Positions 11,356 to 29,541 of a DNA stretch of 36,765 bases are shown in pieces. The stretch lies in the IMG/VR virus record IMGVR_UViG_3300027796_000023. The stretch is one strand, 5' to 3'. The notes under the pieces are model-generated. The model worked only from the letters and a program-made list of their open reading frames with translations, had not been told where the DNA came from and did no database searches. Every line of letters starts with the position of its first letter. Position 1 is the stretch's first letter. The position numbers and the translations under genes were made by a program. The DNA comes from a virus.

Positions 11356-12912
11356 ATGGATAGGACAAACGCATCCGGAAGCATCGACGGAGCATACGTC
11401 GACGATGATCCTGTAAATGAAATAACCGGAACGCTCCTCGTCGCTCATGATCGGAACGCAATTCAAGAGGAATTACTTGCCGTCATAGAGGCCGCGGGAA
11501 TTACTCCGAATGGAAATAATTGGGCGCAGATACTAGCCGCGCTCCGATCAAGCGCCGCGAACCTGGTCGACGCTAACAAACTGAACGGACAGCTCGCCGA
11601 ATTTTATCGCGACGCCGGGAATTTGAACGCTGGCACCGTACCAGAGGCGCGACTCCCGCTCGCAGCGATCGCGGCCGCGATAAACTATACCGCCGCCGAC
11701 GTACTCTTAAAACTATTGACCGTAGACGGCGCTGAATCGGGACTCGTTTCGGAAGATTCGACGAAACTAGGAGGAGTCGCCGCCGCGAATTTTATACACG
11801 GAAACGAGAACGGGGCAATTTTAGCAAATAGTGGATCGTTTTCATCTAATGCTACAAGGTCAGGATTTTATATATTTAACGGAATAACCGTTTCAGACTT
11901 GCCGGACGCAGAATTTTATTCCGGATATATAACAAAATATGATAATAATACCGGAAACGCGGAGATTGTAGCAACATCGGGGAAAAAATATGCGCGAAGT
12001 TTAGGCGGAGGAGTTTGGTCCTCATGGATTCTTATCTCCGACAATGGAGTCGCGCCTAATTCCGCAGATTCTAAGATGCTAAATTCTGCGGCGAAGGCTT
12101 TTAAGTTCCAATTATATAACGCAGGAAATACTTTATTAAAAAGAATTTGTATTTTGCCGAATGGAACAAATAGCACCGATTCGGCAAGAATAAACCTTTC
12201 ATTACACGACTGGACTTTTATGTACGGAACGGGTGAATTTGTATTTAAAAACAGAAATGGATTTAAATACATCGCGCATCATGATGGCTCTGTTTCTGTC
12301 AGTACTTGTGGTATTGCTTGCTATAATCGTTCAGACGGAGGAATTGACGTTTGCATATATGCACACGCCGGACAATTTATTGAAGCCTCCGTTTTGGTCG
12401 ACGGCGAAGATATTATTTTTTCGAATGGGGAGGACTTTGTTCCGTCTGGTAGTTTGTGCTTTGACTCTGCGGACACAACGACATATCCAATAAATAGAAA
12501 AACATGGAACTCGAATTCGCATCCGACGACGCTCACCGGATATGGCATAACCGACGCGCTAAAAGATTCGGTAATCGTTACGGGAACCGCACGAACGATT
12601 TATAATCAAGGTATCGTTTCATATACGCGACGAGAATTTATATCGTTCGTTCGTGGTTCGCTCAAGCTCGATTTCGTTCATGATAATTTAGCTGGTTTAA
12701 TAACTGTCACCTCGGCCGGTAAAACTGTATATCAATACAATCATCCCGACAATACCGCTATAAATATAACCGTCGACGTACCGGTTTATCATTCGCAGCC
12801 GGTTGTTTTGACCTGTTCCGCTGGAAATATAACGCGGTTTATGGTAAAAGACGATGGAACCTGTTCCGGTGCGTTATACGACGAGACGGTCGCTTTTCTG
12901 AATCTTGGTTAA
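11356..12912 (+). CDS. Tail fibre protein (518 aa), compositionally mosaic
   Basis: The gene follows the baseplate genes and carries the tail-fibre motif TLTGYGITDA (about 12520-12552). The N-terminal third is GC-rich and the middle (about 11815-12530) is AT-rich. Confidence 0.8.
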   Translation: MDRTNASGSIDGAYVDDDPVNEITGTLLVAHDRNAIQEELLAVIEAAGITPNGNNWAQILAALRSSAANLVDANKLNGQLAEFYRDAGNLNAGTVPEARLPLAAIAAAINYTAADVLLKLLTVDGAESGLVSEDSTKLGGVAAANFIHGNENGAILANSGSFSSNATRSGFYIFNGITVSDLPDAEFYSGYITKYDNNTGNAEIVATSGKKYARSLGGGVWSSWILISDNGVAPNSADSKMLNSAAKAFKFQLYNAGNTLLKRICILPNGTNSTDSARINLSLHDWTFMYGTGEFVFKNRNGFKYIAHHDGSVSVSTCGIACYNRSDGGIDVCIYAHAGQFIEASVLVDGEDIIFSNGEDFVPSGSLCFDSADTTTYPINRKTWNSNSHPTTLTGYGITDALKDSVIVTGTARTIYNQGIVSYTRREFISFVRGSLKLDFVHDNLAGLITVTSAGKTVYQYNHPDNTAINITVDVPVYHSQPVVLTCSAGNITRFMVKDDGTCSGALYDETVAFLNLG

Positions 12913-12928
12913 TGGCGGGAGTTATATA

Positions 12929-13225
12929 ATGAAATTCGGAATAATTATGTCGGCGATTTTACTCGCGATGATCGTCGCGCTTTACTTGGTCAATAAGTCG
13001 CGCGAGCGACAAAAGGAACGCGCCGACGAAGCCGAAGCGCGCGCGAAAACCGAACGCGCTGAACTCGCAAAACGCGAAAAATTCAACGCACAAATGGAGA
13101 CGATCGAAAATGAACGACAAGCGAAAACCGGGAAAGTTACTACTGGCCGTGCTCTTACTGATTTCGACAATTCTCTTGACGTCCTGTCAGATATTGCCGG
13201 AACCAAAAGTCGAGTATCGAAATAG
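12929..13225 (+). CDS. i-spanin (Rz-like, 98 aa)
   Basis: It has an N-terminal TM helix (FGIIMSAILLAMIVALYLV) followed by a charged coiled-coil (RERQKERADEAEARAKTERAELAKREK). The SD GGGAG lies 8 nt upstream. Confidence 0.7.
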   Translation: MKFGIIMSAILLAMIVALYLVNKSRERQKERADEAEARAKTERAELAKREKFNAQMETIENERQAKTGKVTTGRALTDFDNSLDVLSDIAGTKSRVSK

Positions 13226-24815: not shown

Positions 24816-25060
24816 ATATGTTTTTTCTTGGGTTTATTTTGGGAATTGTTTCTTTCGGGATCGCGGGAATATTTTGCAGCTTGCCGAAAATAGGCCGACG
24901 CGATGCTCCGCAACTATGGGACGTCGTCGCGCTGGTACAATCCGACGGGAAATGGAACGTCGTAAAATGGTTGGGCGATAAAGGCGAACCAGGTCGGCGC
25001 GTCGTTCTCATGCGTCGCGAATCCGTTTCAGCCATAATCGAGGAAACGAAACCATGCTGA
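24812..25060 (+). CDS. Small membrane protein (82 aa)
   Basis: The N-terminal TM helix is FFLGFILGIVSFGIAGIFCSL. Confidence 0.55.
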   Translation: MNMFFLGFILGIVSFGIAGIFCSLPKIGRRDAPQLWDVVALVQSDGKWNVVKWLGDKGEPGRRVVLMRRESVSAIIEETKPC

Positions 25061-25659
25061 TAACGCTCCCGCGCGCTCTCGATCCTGACGCCTATTATTC
25101 ACAAACGAACAACGTCGTCGAGACAATCCTCGCGAAATGCAAGGCAGACCGGAAACTCGAAACCTGCGGTCCGACAGCCGCTACGATCATCGTCGACGCG
25201 CTCGGGAAGCTCCTCCCGATCGTCGCTCCTGGCGGGTGGAAACCACAGCCGGAGGACGTACTCGCCGCATGGTTTAATGATCCGCGAAATTATGACGCCA
25301 TGCGGCGCGCTCGCGACGGGATCGATCCGGCGTCGATTATGGGGAACGAGGTGCCGCAATGGTATCCGCCTGCGCTGGCGGCCGTTTTCGGGGTCCGCTC
25401 GACGTTCGCCTGGGGATTTTCGTTCGACCTGGTCCGCGAGGAGATAGAACGAGGGCTCGGAGTCCTCGCGACGATAAAGAATCCGGGACATTATATCGCG
25501 ATTGTCGGTGTCGACATTGATCGCCGGGAACTATTGTACCATGATCCATGGCCGGGCGATCCATGGCCGGGACGATATAAAGGATTTGGCGGGCAATGCC
25601 GTAGACTTTACGAGCTCGAGCTCGTAAATATACAGCCGTACCGGGTCGAAATAGGATAA
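25054..25659 (+). CDS. Putative papain-like cysteine peptidase (C39-like fold, 201 aa)
   Basis: The candidate Cys is in ETCGPTAATIIVDA and the candidate His in NPGHYIAIVGVD, followed by YHDPW. It is the last backbone-composition gene before the island. Confidence 0.45.
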   Translation: MLITLPRALDPDAYYSQTNNVVETILAKCKADRKLETCGPTAATIIVDALGKLLPIVAPGGWKPQPEDVLAAWFNDPRNYDAMRRARDGIDPASIMGNEVPQWYPPALAAVFGVRSTFAWGFSFDLVREEIERGLGVLATIKNPGHYIAIVGVDIDRRELLYHDPWPGDPWPGRYKGFGGQCRRLYELELVNIQPYRVEIG

Positions 25660-25670
25660 TAGGGGTTTAT

Positions 25671-25721
25671 ACTGAACATTGCATAATGGATTTATGCTGT
25701 TCAGTCTAATTTATGTTAGGC
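25671..25721 (+). repeat. Hairpin plus GTTAGGC core-site-like heptamer at the left edge of the low-GC island
   Basis: ACTGAACA (25671-25678) pairs with TGTTCAGT (25698-25705). An inner GCATAA/TTATGC stem and a TT bulge are present. GTTAGGC (GTTRRRY) lies at 25715-25721. Confidence 0.4.
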
Positions 25722-25751
25722 CGACGCCTTCGGCGCCAATAAGGAGAAAAA

Positions 25752-27941
25752 ATGAATATCGATGATAGAAGCCATTTAATAATTCCAATTGAAAGTATAA
25801 AAAAACAGGAATATGAGAAATCTGGTTTTGGTGAAGTTTTTAATAGACAAAATATTCCTGAACATAGTCAGAAGCTGAAAAGAAATTTTTCTGCTATTAC
25901 TTCTCGATTACAGCAAAGTAAAGATTTTGAATATATTGACACCTTAACAGTTTCAATTGTTACTCCTAAAGAATGGGATGCAAAAAAAGAAAAGGGACAT
26001 CTCAATGACCTTGGATTCACAATACTGGATTATAGTCGGAAATATCCAAATATCGTGACCGTCTCCATTCCTAAAAACAAATGGCCTGAAGTAGAAAAGA
26101 AAATTAGTCTATATGCAGAAAAAGGTGGGGTCGGAAAAACAAACTTACAGGCAATCAATGGCTTTATTCCTCGATTAGCAAGTGATTCACTTAATATTAC
26201 TACAGATGAAAGTGATAAATTAATAGATGTGAATATTACTTTTTTTAGTATACTTACTAAAAAAGAAGTAATAAATATAAGTGAACACTTGATTACTGAA
26301 CTTAAAAAAAATAATAGGTCTGTTAAGGTTATCCAATTATCAGATGATGATGTTATTGTTTCTTGTTCAGCATCGATTAATGAATTAAAAGGTATTGTAA
26401 AAGACTATATATCTGTAAAATCAATTGTGAATGATGATATTGTATTTATTGAGAAAGCATCAATCCGGACTAATTCTCATAAAACTGTTTTGGTTTCGAG
26501 GCCATTAACAAATCAAATCATTGCTGTCATTGATGATGGTATTTCTCCGCGTGAGGATTTAGCACCTCTAGTTACAGAGCGATTGTCTCCACAGGTTGCA
26601 AATGCAGTTACTGTTCCAGCAATACATGGAACGTATGTTGCAAGTAGATGCGTATTCGGAGATCTAGACCTTGATTCATTAGGTTCTGAAGTCGAACCTT
26701 GCTGTTGGCTTGATGATATTCCCGTTTTCGGTATAGATAGTTCAGGTAATAAATTAAGTCCAAGAGAATCAGATTTAATAAATGCAATTGATGCTTTTGT
26801 GAGCAAAAACTATAAAACAGTTAAGATTTACAATTTATCATTAGGATTTGGCGCCCCACTGATTTATCAAAAGTTTTCAGAGACCGCAAAGCGTTTGGAC
26901 CTGTTAAGTAAAAAATATGACGTTTTATTTGTTATTGCATCTGGAAATAATAATTCTTTATTAGGCCTCTTCCCTGAAGATCATTTCAAAAATCCATATG
27001 CAAGCATATCATCACCTTCTGAATCATTAACTTGTTTATCTGTTGGCTCAATTGCAAAAAAAGAATCAGCAATTTCAATGTCAAAGTATAATGAAATATC
27101 TCCTTTCTCAAAAATCGGACCTGGACTATTCGGTAGTATTAAACCAGATCTTGTTGCGCATGGCGGGAATCTAGTAAATGGATATAAACCTGATGCTGAT
27201 ATCTCAACGTGTGGATTTTCTGTAGCTAATGGATTAATTGAAAATGATATTGGTACGAGCTTTTCGGCCCCAATCGTCTCAAATATTGCTGCTCAATTAT
27301 TTGACTACTATCCAATGTATGGATCAAACATGATACGGGCATTGCTTATCCATGGTGCAGAGGAACGCATTTTTCCACAAAAACTGAATATTGAATCTCA
27401 TCTAGGTTGTGGCTATGGTGAACCAGATTTGCAAAAATGTTTGCAAAGCGATAACTTTTCTTGTGTGTTTCTAACTGAAGGAGAGCTGGATACTAGTAAT
27501 TATGATCTTGTGCCATTTTATATTCCTAAAATACTTGCAGATGGAAAACAGTCACTACGTATAAAAATAACAATAACGTTTAATCCAGAAGTAAATAAAA
27601 ATAATGATGAAGAGTATTCATGTTCAAGAATATCAAGTAACTTACAACGGCTTAAAGATAATTGTCTTACAAAAAAAAATCCTGAAGAAATAAATCTATC
27701 AGCACCATATAGCACAGTGATTAGGTATAGTTGCTCAATGAAACGCAATATTGAGCCCGGAGAATGGGCAGTAAAATTACGTTTATACTCACGTAATGTT
27801 GATCAAGCAATCTATAAACAGAAATATGCTTTGGTTATTGAGATACGCGATGAACTTAGTAAAATAGATTTGCGAGAACAAGTTATCAACGAAACAGGTG
27901 AAATGTATATCAAAAAGCTGAAAGAAAGAAAAATGGCCTAA
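25752..27941 (+). CDS. Subtilisin-like (S8) serine peptidase with unknown about 250-aa N-terminal and about 170-aa C-terminal regions; no signal peptide (729 aa)
   Basis: The catalytic triad is in D-H-S order: IAVIDDGIS (about 26520), HGTYVAS (about 26625) and GTSFSAPIV (about 27255). The SD is AAGGAG. GC is very low. Confidence 0.85.
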   Translation: MNIDDRSHLIIPIESIKKQEYEKSGFGEVFNRQNIPEHSQKLKRNFSAITSRLQQSKDFEYIDTLTVSIVTPKEWDAKKEKGHLNDLGFTILDYSRKYPNIVTVSIPKNKWPEVEKKISLYAEKGGVGKTNLQAINGFIPRLASDSLNITTDESDKLIDVNITFFSILTKKEVINISEHLITELKKNNRSVKVIQLSDDDVIVSCSASINELKGIVKDYISVKSIVNDDIVFIEKASIRTNSHKTVLVSRPLTNQIIAVIDDGISPREDLAPLVTERLSPQVANAVTVPAIHGTYVASRCVFGDLDLDSLGSEVEPCCWLDDIPVFGIDSSGNKLSPRESDLINAIDAFVSKNYKTVKIYNLSLGFGAPLIYQKFSETAKRLDLLSKKYDVLFVIASGNNNSLLGLFPEDHFKNPYASISSPSESLTCLSVGSIAKKESAISMSKYNEISPFSKIGPGLFGSIKPDLVAHGGNLVNGYKPDADISTCGFSVANGLIENDIGTSFSAPIVSNIAAQLFDYYPMYGSNMIRALLIHGAEERIFPQKLNIESHLGCGYGEPDLQKCLQSDNFSCVFLTEGELDTSNYDLVPFYIPKILADGKQSLRIKITITFNPEVNKNNDEEYSCSRISSNLQRLKDNCLTKKNPEEINLSAPYSTVIRYSCSMKRNIEPGEWAVKLRLYSRNVDQAIYKQKYALVIEIRDELSKIDLREQVINETGEMYIKKLKERKMA

Positions 27942-28048
27942 CAACTGCTTCAACCTGACTCGGCTATGTCACGATTCTTGCTAGTCGTCGCTACGCTCCT
28001 CGGCAAGAATCGCGCCATTACGCCTCGCAGGTTAAGCAAATGTTATAC
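27936..28048 (+). repeat. attC-like site 1 (113 bp)
   Basis: R''-like GCCTAAC contains the protease TAA, and R'-like GTTATAC lies at 28042-28048. The arms pair TGCTT[C]AACCTG[A]C with GCAGGTTAAGCA. The central stem is CGATTCTTGC/GCAAGAATCG. Confidence 0.5.
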
Positions 28049-28059
28049 GGACGGCAAAA

Positions 28060-28077
28060 GGCATAACAAGTTATGCC
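28060..28077. repeat. 18-bp perfect palindrome GGCATAACAAGTTATGCC
   Basis: It lies 12 nt after attC-like site 1 and 22 nt before the next ORF. A near-identical copy is at 28433-28450. Confidence 0.8.
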
Positions 28078-28099
28078 TACAAGCCGCAAAGGAGAAAAG

Positions 28100-28366
28100 A
28101 TGAATATATTCGAGTTTGCGGACATTATCGATAAAAGCATTGTTATTACTCGGTACGCAAATCAAGACGGACGATTCTCTGCATCGTTTGATTACTGCGA
28201 AACAAAACAAGGTGCATGCCTTTGCGGCGAATATGGAAACGGAAAAACTCCGCAAGAAGCATTAAACAACTATAAAAACAAGATAATCGGGAAGACTCTT
28301 GTTTTTAATGCAATGAGCGATGATTATCGGCAAGAATACGTCGCTCCGAAAATGGAAGACGTATAA
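28100..28366 (+). CDS. Cassette ORF 2, hypothetical (88 aa)
   Basis: The SD AAGGAG lies 6 nt upstream. Translation begins MNIFEFADIIDKSIVITRYANQDGRF. The ORF-track start at 28073 lies inside the palindrome. Confidence 0.55.
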   Translation: MNIFEFADIIDKSIVITRYANQDGRFSASFDYCETKQGACLCGEYGNGKTPQEALNNYKNKIIGKTLVFNAMSDDYRQEYVAPKMEDV

Positions 28367-28420
28367 CAACGAGTTCGACCTGACAACTTAGTAAAGTTGC
28401 AGGTCAACTCAATGTTGGAT
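28361..28420 (+). repeat. attC-like site 2 (60 bp)
   Basis: GTATAAC contains the ORF stop. The arms pair GAGTT[C]GACCTG[A]CAACTT, loop agta, AAGTTGCAGGTCAACTC. R' is GTTGGAT, a perfect GTTRRRY, at 28414-28420. Confidence 0.55.
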
Positions 28421-28432
28421 GGATTCTTTAGC

Positions 28433-28450
28433 GGTATAACAAGTTATACC
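28433..28450. repeat. 18-bp perfect palindrome GGTATAACAAGTTATACC
   Basis: It lies 12 nt after attC-like site 2 and 27 nt before the next ORF. 16 of 18 nt match 28060-28077. Confidence 0.8.
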
Positions 28451-28477
28451 GACACGAACTAAACCGGAGGAAGTAAT

Positions 28478-28633
28478 ATGCGAAAGAAGCCTATTGATGC
28501 CAATGAATACGATTTCGATATGTTTGAAAATTGGTTAGATGAAAACGGCGTTGGAGAACTGTTTGACGATTGGTCGCAATGGTGGGAATGTTGGAAAACC
28601 GCCTATCATTGGGGACAAGAAAATGGCATCTAA
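28478..28633 (+). CDS. Cassette ORF 3, hypothetical acidic Trp-rich peptide (51 aa)
   Basis: The SD is GGAGG. Translation is MRKKPIDANEYDFDMFENWLDENGVGELFDDWSQWWECWKTAYHWGQENGI. Confidence 0.45.
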   Translation: MRKKPIDANEYDFDMFENWLDENGVGELFDDWSQWWECWKTAYHWGQENGI

Positions 28634-28660
28634 CAACTGATTCCACCTGACTCAATGCAG
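28628..28660 (+). repeat. Truncated attC-like half-site (R''/L'' arm only)
   Basis: ATCTAAC is a perfect RYYYAAC and contains the ORF stop. It is followed by AACTGATTCCACCTGACTC, so TAACAACTGATTCCACCTGACTC matches attC-like site 1 at 21 of 23 nt. No complementary 3' arm was found downstream. Confidence 0.45.
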
Positions 28661-28686
28661 AAGGCCGTCGTTTATGCGACGTCCTT
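28661..28686. terminator. Hairpin between the island and the minus-strand regulator (possible bidirectional terminator)
   Basis: AAGGCCGTCG / CGACGTCCTT forms a 10-bp stem with one mismatch and a 6-nt loop. No clear U-run follows on either strand. Confidence 0.3.
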
Positions 28687-28690
28687 TCTA

Positions 28691-28900
28691 TTAAAAAAAC
28701 TGTTCTACTTTCTCAATAAGTCCGTCGCGCGCGAGTTTTTCTCGGACCGCCTCGCGGATATACTCGCACCGATTACACGGAATAATATCTTTCCATGTAT
28801 CCGGAACACGAATCGGAATAACGTACTTTTTTCCATAAACCGTTGGTCGGCCTGCTCCCTTACGCACTCCGCCATGATCGGATAATCGTTTTTTTTCCAT
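28691..28900 (-). CDS. Ribbon-helix-helix (CopG/MetJ-like) regulator, the only minus-strand gene (69 aa)
   Basis: The N-terminus carries GGVRKGAGRP. The RHH-like part is KKYVIPIRVPDTWKDII...CEYIREAVREKLARDG. The gene is divergent from the operator-rich region. Confidence 0.6.
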   Translation of the reverse strand: MEKKRLSDHGGVRKGAGRPTVYGKKYVIPIRVPDTWKDIIPCNRCEYIREAVREKLARDGLIEKVEQFF

Positions 28901-28992
28901 GTTTCATACCTATTTTGTCGGGAGCTGATCCCAACATTCCCGGATTATTCTTGAAATAAACATACACCAACCATGTAACATAATCAATTAGT

Positions 28993-29086
28993 TTATACAA
29001 CAATCAAGTTTTGCAAAACCGACAAACTTGATTTATGTTATACAACAATCAAGTGGTAGTTTTTATGAAACTTGATTATTGTATAA
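28993..29086. promoter_or_regulatory. Operator array: four copies of a 17-bp site TTATACAACAATCAAGT in alternating orientation
   Basis: The + copies at 28993-29009 and 29038-29054 are identical. The - copies are at 29026-29042 (diverged outside the AATCAAGT half) and 29070-29086 (1 mismatch). They form two large palindromes. Confidence 0.6.
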
Positions 29087-29110
29087 AAAGAATATCACTG
29101 ATAGCTATTC

Positions 29111-29416
29111 TGTTGCGCTGGAAAAATATGCGCAACAACAGCGCAACAGAACACGACACACGAACACGAATAGCTAATTCCTTATTATATATATATTTCT
29201 TTTAAATAATATATATAAAAAAGTAGGCCTGTTGCGCTGTTGCGCTTGTTGCGCAGAATTCAGTCCTCACGCGGAGTAAAAAAAATTGATTGCAATATAA
29301 TAATCAAACTATGTATATGGTGAAAGTAAGCGCAACAAGCGCAACAGCGTTACATCGTTATCCTGTAAGGAATTAGGGTGCAACAGTAGCGCAACAAGGC
29401 GCAACAAGGCGCAACA
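29111..29416. repeat. Iteron field: 11 perfect + 1 degenerate GCGCAACA 8-mers in oriented clusters around an AT-rich palindrome
   Basis: The - copies start at 29111, 29230, 29238 and 29247. The + copies start at 29130, 29141, 29330, 29339, (29378), 29389, 29399 and 29409. The AT-only palindromic stretch is 29181-29222. An ATAGCTATTC/GAATAGCTA inverted repeat lies at 29101 and 29168. Confidence 0.85.
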
Positions 29417-29541
29417 GACCAGCACACAAAGCGACGTAAATCTATACACTGTATGAAATTAAGGTACTGTCTAGCCGATAAAATCGCTCACGGGTACTGC
29501 AAGGCGCCGAGAATACCTACTTTCTCCATTTTCGGGGTCAG

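Follow-up and report, generated by a model that had tools for sequence, protein, structure and literature searches.

An integrase-less integron cassette array with an IetS-like protease gene, behind a conserved attI-like leader, in the genome of a contractile-tailed phage

Integrons are mainly known as vehicles of antibiotic resistance and, more lately, as stores of anti-phage defence genes. The stretch of DNA analysed here, the viral record IMGVR_UViG_3300027796_000023 of IMG/VR (36,765 nucleotides; hereafter the window), is a circular contig whose first 127 nt are identical to its last 127 nt, and it represents the complete circular genome (36,638 bp) of a contractile-tailed phage. Positions 25,691-28,655 of the window are best read as an integrase-less integron gene-cassette array (CALIN) located behind a conserved attI-like site, a reading to which we assign a probability of nearly nine in ten.

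The array consists of three co-oriented cassettes with a single open reading frame (ORF) each, all on the plus strand, and each ORF ends within the R'' box of an attC repeat. Cassette 1 (25,716-28,042; 2,327 bp) starts with TTAGGC and comprises one ORF followed by attC1, a site of the long form (27,936-28,048; 113 nt) whose R'' box GCCTAAC (27,936-27,942) holds the stop codon and whose R' box is GTTATAC; its layout is GCCTAAC-AAC-TGCTTCAACCTGAC...GCAGGTTAAGCA-AAT-GTTATAC. Cassette 2 (28,043-28,414; 372 bp) contains a leader hairpin (GGCATAACAAGTTATGCC, 28,060-28,077), an ORF of 88 aa (28,100-28,366; 97 aa from the start at 28,073) and attC2, a site of the short form (28,361-28,420; 60 nt) with R'' GTATAAC and R' GTTGGAT, laid out as GTATAAC-AAC-GAGTTCGACCTGAC...GCAGGTCAACTC-AAT-GTTGGAT. 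Cassette 3 (28,415-28,655, the end being approximate) is truncated, and is made up of a leader hairpin (GGTATAACAAGTTATACC, 28,433-28,450), an ORF of 51 aa (28,478-28,633) and one half of an attC (28,628-28,653), with R'' ATCTAAC plus L'' only.

In both attC1 and attC2 the R''-L''-variable loop-L'-R' layout is complete, the spacer is unpaired, and the arms are paired except for single bulged bases; compared with the consensus RYYYAAC/GTTRRRY, one box in each of the two sites is off by one base. The bottom strand of attC1, as single-stranded DNA, folds at -25.1 kcal/mol (z = -4.6 against shuffles), and that of attC2 at -16 kcal/mol (z = -6.4), the latter with single T and G bulges, as attC sites should show. 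Moreover, the cassette starts complement their own R'' boxes: the match is 7 out of 7 for GTTAGGC (25,715) with GCCTAAC and for GTTATAC (28,042) with GTATAAC, and 6 out of 7 for the start of cassette 3, GTTGGAT (28,414), with ATCTAAC. Such complementarity is the scar of a G|TT crossover by an integron integrase.

A naive scan for NNNNAAC...GTTNNNN folds gave dozens of matches across the GC-rich backbone and was useless; it was therefore replaced by a covariance model built from 61 sites of the attC family. Its scores were 66 bits for attC2 and 61.7 bits for attC1; the training set included the two sites. The whole-site score of the third site was 12.4 bits (E = 0.9), without an attC fold, while its 5' half matched the 5' half of attC1 (27,938-27,961) at 22 of 24 positions (92 %). 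The model found no further convincing attC in the window, and a search for a complete third attC or for a distant partner arm found neither. A fusion of two convergent attCs at 28,628-28,710 was also considered, but is incompatible with the sequences.

The sole megablast match among isolated phages was Tetrasphaera phage TJE1 (HQ225832), whose first 1.5 kb are a three-cassette array with the same attC family. CALINs in 17 phages, TJE1 among them, have been described by Qi et al. (2023, Front Microbiol; PMC9892861), and IntI1 integrates both TJE1_attC1 and TJE1_attC2 into attI1 in vivo (PMC9892861). From R'' through the GTT of R', attC2 is identical to the TJE1_attC2 oligonucleotide (57/57 nt); therefore, one of the two intact sites of the window is, in sequence, a validated integrase substrate. 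In addition, the 61-nt leader of cassette 2 matches the leader of the TJE1 methylase cassette at 58 positions, while the ORFs that follow are unrelated (88 aa vs. 243 aa). The two arrays are alike in being integrase-less phage arrays of three co-oriented cassettes with the same attC family, both headed by GTTAGNC-6 nt-GTCYAAY-3/4 nt-GTTRRRY. They differ in their backbone, for which no other DNA match was found (contractile tail and lambda-type terminase here, a Tijeunavirus in the case of TJE1), in their cargo (a methylase and hypothetical proteins in TJE1, an IetS-like protease and two small ORFs here), in their genomic position, and in the last attC, which is complete in TJE1 and truncated here. 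It should be noted that the same leader and attC, forming a sort of 'chassis', carry different cargo in the window (28,042-28,102 plus 28,351-28,417) and in TJE1 (287-347 plus 1,006-1,072 of L001), an observation that bears on how cassettes are made or re-loaded.

The pattern AACAACKRNTTCNAN{15,45}YYAASYMAATGTT was found in 89 IMG/VR stretches, in which the covariance model finds 190 sites, often 3-7 per array. When the flanking ORFs of six of these loci were compared with PHROG families, 9 out of 10 gave a match (large terminase, primases, helicases, Cas4-type exonuclease), and no IntI homologue was found in the 89 stretches. Among bacterial and archaeal genomes (596 Gb), 57 stretches matched the same pattern. 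A Treponemataceae chromosome (OY762953.2) contains arrays of 9-11 sites per 8 kb, and arrays of the family are also present in metagenome-assembled genomes (MAGs) of Paludibacter and Acholeplasmatales; in the bacterial MAG MFD04752.bin.1.3 (L133), an IntI homologue 52 % identical to IntI1 lies beside an attC. The cassette pool is therefore common to bacterial chromosomal integrons and phages, and a purely phage-specific attC family is ruled out by the Treponemataceae, Paludibacter and other MAG arrays and by the IntI of L133. The apparent viral enrichment (89 vs. 57 stretches) is biased, because phage sites served as the basis of the pattern and because of the redundancy of IMG/VR. Compared with sedentary chromosomal integrons, such as those of OY762953.2 and of the metagenome array L107, the phage array has in common the attC family, including its 110-125-nt form, and the single-ORF low-GC cassettes and, in the case of L107, also a homologous S8 protease cassette. 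However, the chromosomal integrons are long and bacterial, with IntI beside an attC in at least one locus (L133), whereas the phage array is short, integrase-less and embedded between phage genes.

The array is headed by the conserved attI-like leader (25,691-25,721, plus strand; TTTATGC-TGTTCA-GTCTAAT-TTAT-GTTAGGC), with the presumed crossover between G25715 and T25716. In its layout, a short spacer separates an inverted R-like box from an R box, and an extra R-like repeat is found upstream; this resembles the attI1 simple site, for which reason the leader is here called attI-like. A block of 24-32 nt of this leader, with unrelated left flanks, heads the first cassette in at least nine other viral contigs (it was seen in L034, L047, L048, L050, L055, L088, L101 and L103), and the leader of TJE1 has the same box layout (GTTAGAC-CGATCG-GTCCAAC-CAT-GTTGGAT); altogether, such a block is found in front of at least 10 other phage arrays. 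An IMG/VR-wide scan for CTGNNCAGYMTAAYNTATGTTA returned 10 stretches only, and in all of them the motif is located one cassette upstream of attC sites of the same family, or upstream of a truncated attC. The motif was absent from the 57 bacterial stretches and from the L107 array, as represented by the sequences fetched here, and was not seen beside the IntI homologue of L133. As single-stranded DNA the leader folds with z = -6.4. A strong hairpin (ACTGAACA...TGTTCAGT, 25,674-25,707) extends into the leader with its 3' arm. The presence of such a leader at array heads may be new. On a single 40-kb viral contig, IMGVR_UViG_3300033997_000192, there are apparently two arrays, each headed by the attI-like motif (L034, 7,887; L055, 3,256).

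A more far-reaching interpretation, which we consider possible rather than probable, is that phages carry a dedicated integrase-less docking platform, namely a site of about 30 nt (GTTAGGC-TGWWCA-GTCTAAT-ATAT-G|TTAGRY) at which cassettes are captured or swapped via the integrase of any integron-bearing host. If this holds true, the cassette pool would be common to unrelated phages and to bacterial chromosomal integrons, with methylases, the IetS-like protease and small phage-type proteins as cargo, and the shared leader and attC 'chassis' and the R''-AA-R' hairpins would be traces of cassette building or re-loading. Cassettes are also known to insert at GWT sites outside integrons, after which the attC is lost by slippage (Loot et al., bioRxiv 10.1101/2022.09.11.507474). 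The array of the window is similar to these attG insertions in that its cassettes lie outside an integron platform and in the decay of an attC after insertion; it is different in that its left junction is no arbitrary GWT site but a motif of about 30 nt, whose conservation among unrelated phages points to a dedicated site.

The leader hairpins of cassettes 2 and 3 (28,060-28,077 and 28,433-28,450) have the form of a mini-palindrome, NNNTAAC-AA-GTTANNN, in which an R''-like and an R'-like box adjoin each other, at a distance of 19-20 nt from the R' box that precedes the palindrome. At the same distance, it was observed after 10 of 149 viral attC 3' halves and after 0 of 91 in the bacterial loci, and its stems show compensatory changes (AGATAAC/GTTATCT, GTGTAAC/GTTACAC, GCGTAAC/GTTACGC). 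This element could be either a collapsed attC or a functional leader hairpin.

The ORF of cassette 1 is an S8 protease gene (25,752-27,941, plus strand; 729 aa) with a GC content of 0.33 and a GC content at third codon positions (GC3) of 0.21, preceded by the ribosome binding site AAGGAG 6 nt before the ATG. The deduced protein matches Pfam Peptidase_S8 (1e-31), phrog_3964 (5e-83) and, over residues 104-714, the PADLOC IetS model (3e-79), while its score with the NCBIfam IteS model is 209 bits vs. an equivalog cut-off of 900 bits. The residues D261, H292 and S503, together with the oxyanion residue N399, are invariant in 65 homologues. The AF2 model (pLDDT 89.5, pTM 0.91) shows a subtilase core that is preceded by two N-terminal beta-alpha-beta modules and followed by a C-terminal beta-sandwich; the closest PDB structure is the pro-form of Tk-SP, and fold searches returned generic subtilases only. 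In our reading of the model, the N-terminal modules would be prodomain-like. No signal peptide was seen, and the protease therefore looks cytoplasmic and latent.

IetAS is an anti-phage system, reportedly described by Gao et al. (2020). The protease of cassette 1 is similar to its S8 component in length and domain order and in the full-length match to the IetS hidden Markov model. However, the score is below the equivalog threshold, and no gene for the IetA ATPase was found near the protease gene (the cassette contains one ORF, and the neighbours are a C39-like peptidase gene and the 88-aa ORF); thus, the gene is not an IetAS system. IetAS is a two-gene operon in a bacterial defence island, while here a single-gene phage cassette is present. 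The Flagellimonas homologue of the protease also stands alone. The nearest non-identical homologue (54 % aa identity) is likewise cassette-borne, its attC being of the long form and homologous to attC1, and is located in L107, a low-GC array with seven attC sites whose other cassettes encode DUF87 ATPase, protein kinase, TerB_N and NA37 domains. Integron cassettes have been shown to encode phage defence (bioRxiv 10.1101/2024.07.02.601719), and the cassette neighbourhood in L107 fits these reports of defence storage. A further homologue, 46 % identical, was found in another phage contig (L168, 8,001-12,368), along with capsid, D5-type primase and two methyltransferase genes; it is followed by a 664-aa ORF without Pfam match, which might be a partner of that protease.

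As for the two small ORFs, the 88-aa protein of cassette 2 has 18 homologues, all metagenomic; the two whose surroundings were inspected (76 % and 68 % identical) are both located in phage-like contigs, among tightly packed genes and without attC gaps. The 51-aa ORF of cassette 3 gave no family match in Pfam, PADLOC, NCBIfam or PHROGs.

The GC content of the window, calculated over 500 nt, is 0.53-0.59 before 25,500, falls to 0.30-0.42 over 25,750-29,500, and is above 0.5 from about 29,600. For 1-kb windows on the 36,638-bp circle, the mean outside the tract is 0.540 (sd 0.030, minimum 0.410), compared with a mean of 0.366 and a maximum of 0.427 within 25,660-29,460 (z = -5.8); with 3-kb windows the drop reaches z = -8.0. 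The eight windows with the largest tetranucleotide distance from the genome average all start at 25,001-26,751. The GC3 of the main ORF, reported above, is to be compared with 0.60-0.64 in the backbone genes, and three copies of CTAACAACTGNTTCNACCTGAC (repeat family D1) are present in the island, each overlapping the stop codon of an ORF. The initial annotation of this DNA had described 25,660-28,660 as an inserted low-GC accessory island, with an abrupt fall in GC after the stop at 25,659, some 60-nt lines below 20 % G+C in 26,200-26,300, and codon usage, repeats and ORFs unlike the rest of the genome; in composition and gene content the segment is indeed foreign and accessory, the 60-nt line from 26,221 having 15 % G+C. 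The recovery placed at 28,660-28,700, however, is only partial there. The left edge is sharp and directly follows the stop at 25,659. On the right side, GC is 0.44-0.48 at 28,650-28,850, decreases again to 0.26-0.35 at 28,900-29,250, and reaches the backbone level only at about 29,600. The whole low-GC tract therefore measures about 3.9 kb, and 25,660-28,660 is one structural unit inside it, the cassette array. A hint at integron-bearing taxa in the same annotation also proved to be correct, although the unit itself had not been recognized as an integron cassette array.

The phage genome contains structural genes for a major head protein, a tail sheath, a tape measure protein and a Mu-like baseplate, and, at 15.4-24.4 kb, genes for a primase, a helicase, RecE-like and RecT-like proteins and SSB. 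The C39-like peptidase gene (25,054-25,659) is the last gene of this long rightward replication/recombination block. Downstream of the island are the genes for the small terminase (TerS, 29,577), a lambda-type large terminase (TerL, 30,244), the portal and a ClpP-type protease. Every assigned gene is oriented rightward except for the 69-aa ORF at 28,691-28,900. Two further points of the initial annotation are supported, namely the position of the island before the regulatory region (between the C39-like peptidase gene and the RHH gene, operators and iterons described below) and its co-orientation with the upstream genes, which makes read-through plausible, considering that there is no above-chance promoter in front (12 promoter-like sites were found in the region vs. 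14.5 expected by chance) and that a terminator-like hairpin lies behind. On the other hand, the suggestion that the phage is temperate and that the island sits where integration genes are kept was not upheld, because no integrase or recombinase was found and the site is the junction of convergent transcription units. A tblastn search of the window with IntI1 gave no match, while the bacterial loci L133, L147 and L137 were matched; likewise, no recombinase was found among 20 large ORFs of the window (10 searched with Pfam and 10 others with PHROGs). No close relatives were found among isolated phages, the top TerL match being Wolbachia phage WO (40 %). In the region itself, Rfam and tRNA searches gave no match. 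GC is also lowered, although less strongly (to about 0.40), at 11,750-13,000, over the C-terminal two-thirds of a tail-fibre-like ORF (11,356-12,912), where a receptor-binding module may have been exchanged.

Metagenomic relatives of the phage show that the locus is variable. In L004 (TerL 78 %, C39 68 %), gene order is conserved on both flanks, but other low-GC genes, on the opposite strand, are present between the C39 gene and TerS; three degenerate attC half-sites, all on the minus strand, are located in the same interval and are the top three matches of the covariance model in 74 kb. L174 (C39 60 %) originates from a metagenome series that also yielded one assembly of the window phage; the genes between its C39 gene and the RHH homologue are leftward and of normal GC, and it has no attC. 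L014 (TerL 59 %) also has no attC; in place of cassettes there are two small genes, both leftward, and an extended intergenic region ahead of TerS. In none of the three is the segment part of a conserved core, and the island is therefore accessory. The locus is the junction of two convergent transcription units, variable in this group of phages, with cassettes in some members only; the C39 gene has 22 metagenome relatives, and none of them had attC sites. On a Dehalococcoidia MAG contig (JBAZEO010000099.1, L165), a further homologue of the C39-like peptidase (37 %, 1,465-2,016) was noticed about 1.2 kb from an intact attC of the same family (183-242) and on the opposite strand, which is the same arrangement as in L004. 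This contig may be a mis-binned relative of the window phage.

Beyond the array, the low-GC tract continues as phage backbone (28,656-29,460). It begins with a terminator-like hairpin followed by a T-rich run (28,664-28,690; scan match at 28,666-28,681, plus strand), located between convergent gene ends. The 69-aa ORF on the minus strand (28,691-28,900) encodes an RHH-like DNA-binding protein, assigned from its sequence pattern only, with no Pfam match, and is probably the first gene of the short leftward unit of the phage; homologues are found at the same minus-strand position in L004 and L174. Elsewhere, the RHH family is cassette-borne (L034, 8,659-8,817; L113, 657-821; L004, 5,102-5,263), which links this family of regulators to the cassette pool. 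The RHH cassettes have their own promoter (TTGACA-17-TATAGT) overlapping the operator motif CTTGATTGTTGTATA, and this motif is repeated upstream of the RHH gene of the window. The RHH gene of the window was also considered as an inverted cassette, but this was rejected, because the operator motif is shared while the cassette leader is not, and because L174 and L004 keep the gene at the same backbone position. Operator-like repeats follow at 28,994-29,085 (TATACAACAATCAAG twice plus an inverted copy), and backbone iterons at 29,111-29,416 (twelve of the GCGCAACA type, in both orientations, around an AT-rich core at 29,185-29,222). L004 has the same iteron layout with a different iteron, CCATAAAA, and the similarity of its backbone to that of the window resumes at about 29,460. 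The iterons lie just upstream of the small terminase gene and are probably either terminase-binding (cos-like) repeats or origin repeats that co-vary with a DNA-binding protein.

As to how the array might have arisen, a host-encoded IntI would have placed the cassettes in the phage genome when the two met in one cell, drawing on the pool shared with bacterial chromosomal integrons (the Treponemataceae and Paludibacter arrays have the same attC family). The insertion point would have been the gap between the end of the rightward block and the end of the leftward regulatory unit, where nothing was disrupted. The two intact attC sites and the attI-like site should still be substrates in trans for a host IntI, so that cassettes 1 and 2 could be excised or new cassettes added. 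The distal attC would have been truncated by deletion, as expected of hairpin sites outside integrons, and, without its 3' half, that end of the array would be fixed. The cassettes would be expressed by read-through from the upstream phage genes, with transcription ending at the hairpin at 28,664-28,690. The product of cassette 1, a zymogen-like cytoplasmic subtilase of the IetS family, would most probably cleave proteins in the infected cell to the benefit of the phage. This is the least certain part of the proposal: competing phages might be excluded, or a host defence or another host protein destroyed.

Several points weigh against parts of this picture. The covariance scores of attC1 and attC2 are not independent evidence, since the model was trained on both, and the third attC is a half-site only. 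The array stands without IntI in the 36.6-kb circle and thus lacks the adjacent intI of a complete integron. The attI role of the leader would follow from its conservation and box layout. The strong hairpin between the upstream gene and cassette 1 (25,674-25,707) might lower read-through. Finally, the low IteS score and the lack of IetA make a defence role of the protease an extrapolation, and the protease could be a passenger of no benefit to the phage.

A rival origin for the island would be that of an ordinary moron, or of another horizontally acquired segment that entered by illegitimate or homologous recombination, the palindromes being terminators or REP-like repeats. Low GC, accessory distribution and a position at the end of an operon are indeed typical of morons, and attC sites resemble hairpin terminators, one terminator-like hairpin being predicted here. 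Nevertheless, the palindromes contain RYYYAAC/GTTRRRY boxes, an unpaired spacer and single-base bulges, and the cassette starts are complementary to their own R'' boxes; in addition, one of the sites is identical to an experimentally validated attC, and on bacterial contigs repeats of this family occur in arrays of 7 to 11, one of them beside an IntI homologue. We therefore regard this origin as very improbable. It is even harder to believe that the window is an assembly chimera between a phage contig and a bacterial integron fragment. Such a chimera would explain the abrupt jump in composition at the junction, and the region is evidently hard to assemble, because attC1, right behind the protease gene, is where two other assemblies of this phage break off (L105, 8,184-8,244; L106, 3,898-3,928), which suggests either variable population content downstream or assembly collapse at a repeated site. 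However, the identical junction between the C39 and S8 genes is present in independent assemblies from different samples and assemblers (JGI 3300004154 and Logan SRR10466901), and the identical protease is found on seven contigs, including the two that break off in attC1, so that an artefact appears unlikely; moreover, the contig closes as a circle with phage genes on both flanks of the island, the isolated and sequenced phage TJE1 has the same type of array, and a relative keeps relics of one at the same locus.

Two further proposals concern what the cassettes do. The protease might be the effector of a phage-encoded IetAS-type defence, excluding other phages from the infected or lysogenized cell, as the full-length PADLOC match, the intact catalytic triad, the L107 neighbours of its 54 % homologue (DUF87 ATPase, kinase, TerB_N and NA37 cassettes, 'defence-like' in our reading) and the known role of integron cassettes in defence would suggest. 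This is made doubtful by the lack of IetA anywhere near the gene and by a score far below the NCBIfam cut-off, as well as by the solitary Flagellimonas homologue and the homologue in the phage contig L168, which has no identified ATPase partner; furthermore, since there is no sign of a temperate phage, a long-term benefit to the host is questionable. Alternatively, the cassettes may be decaying passengers, captured once, now immobile, and carrying genes useless to the phage. The truncated distal attC and the degenerate half-sites of L004 agree with this, as does the loss of attC by slippage that the literature leads one to expect after insertion outside integrons. It appears unlikely, however, considering that attC1 and attC2 are intact, that the 729-codon ORF is uninterrupted with all its catalytic residues, and that the same sequence is present in several samples.

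Because phage CALINs and this attC family have already been published (Qi et al., 2023), the integrase-less cassette array described here is an island of a known kind. As far as the searched literature shows, what appears to be new is the orphan IetS-like protease as cargo of a phage cassette, the decayed and inverted array that a relative has at this locus, the restriction of the attI-like leader to the heads of arrays, and the sharing of leader and attC between cassettes with unrelated ORFs. The presence in phages of cassettes whose sites have been proven elsewhere means that phages can carry cassettes between bacteria and can draw on the cassette pool, and that a host integrase could shuffle cargo genes of this kind into and out of phages. 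The decayed array in the relative shows that the locus undergoes turnover, and a protease of a defence family is now to be counted among phage-borne cassette cargo. The candidate attI-like docking site shared by unrelated phages, in turn, would make the entry of cassettes into phage genomes a simple question for a recombination assay.

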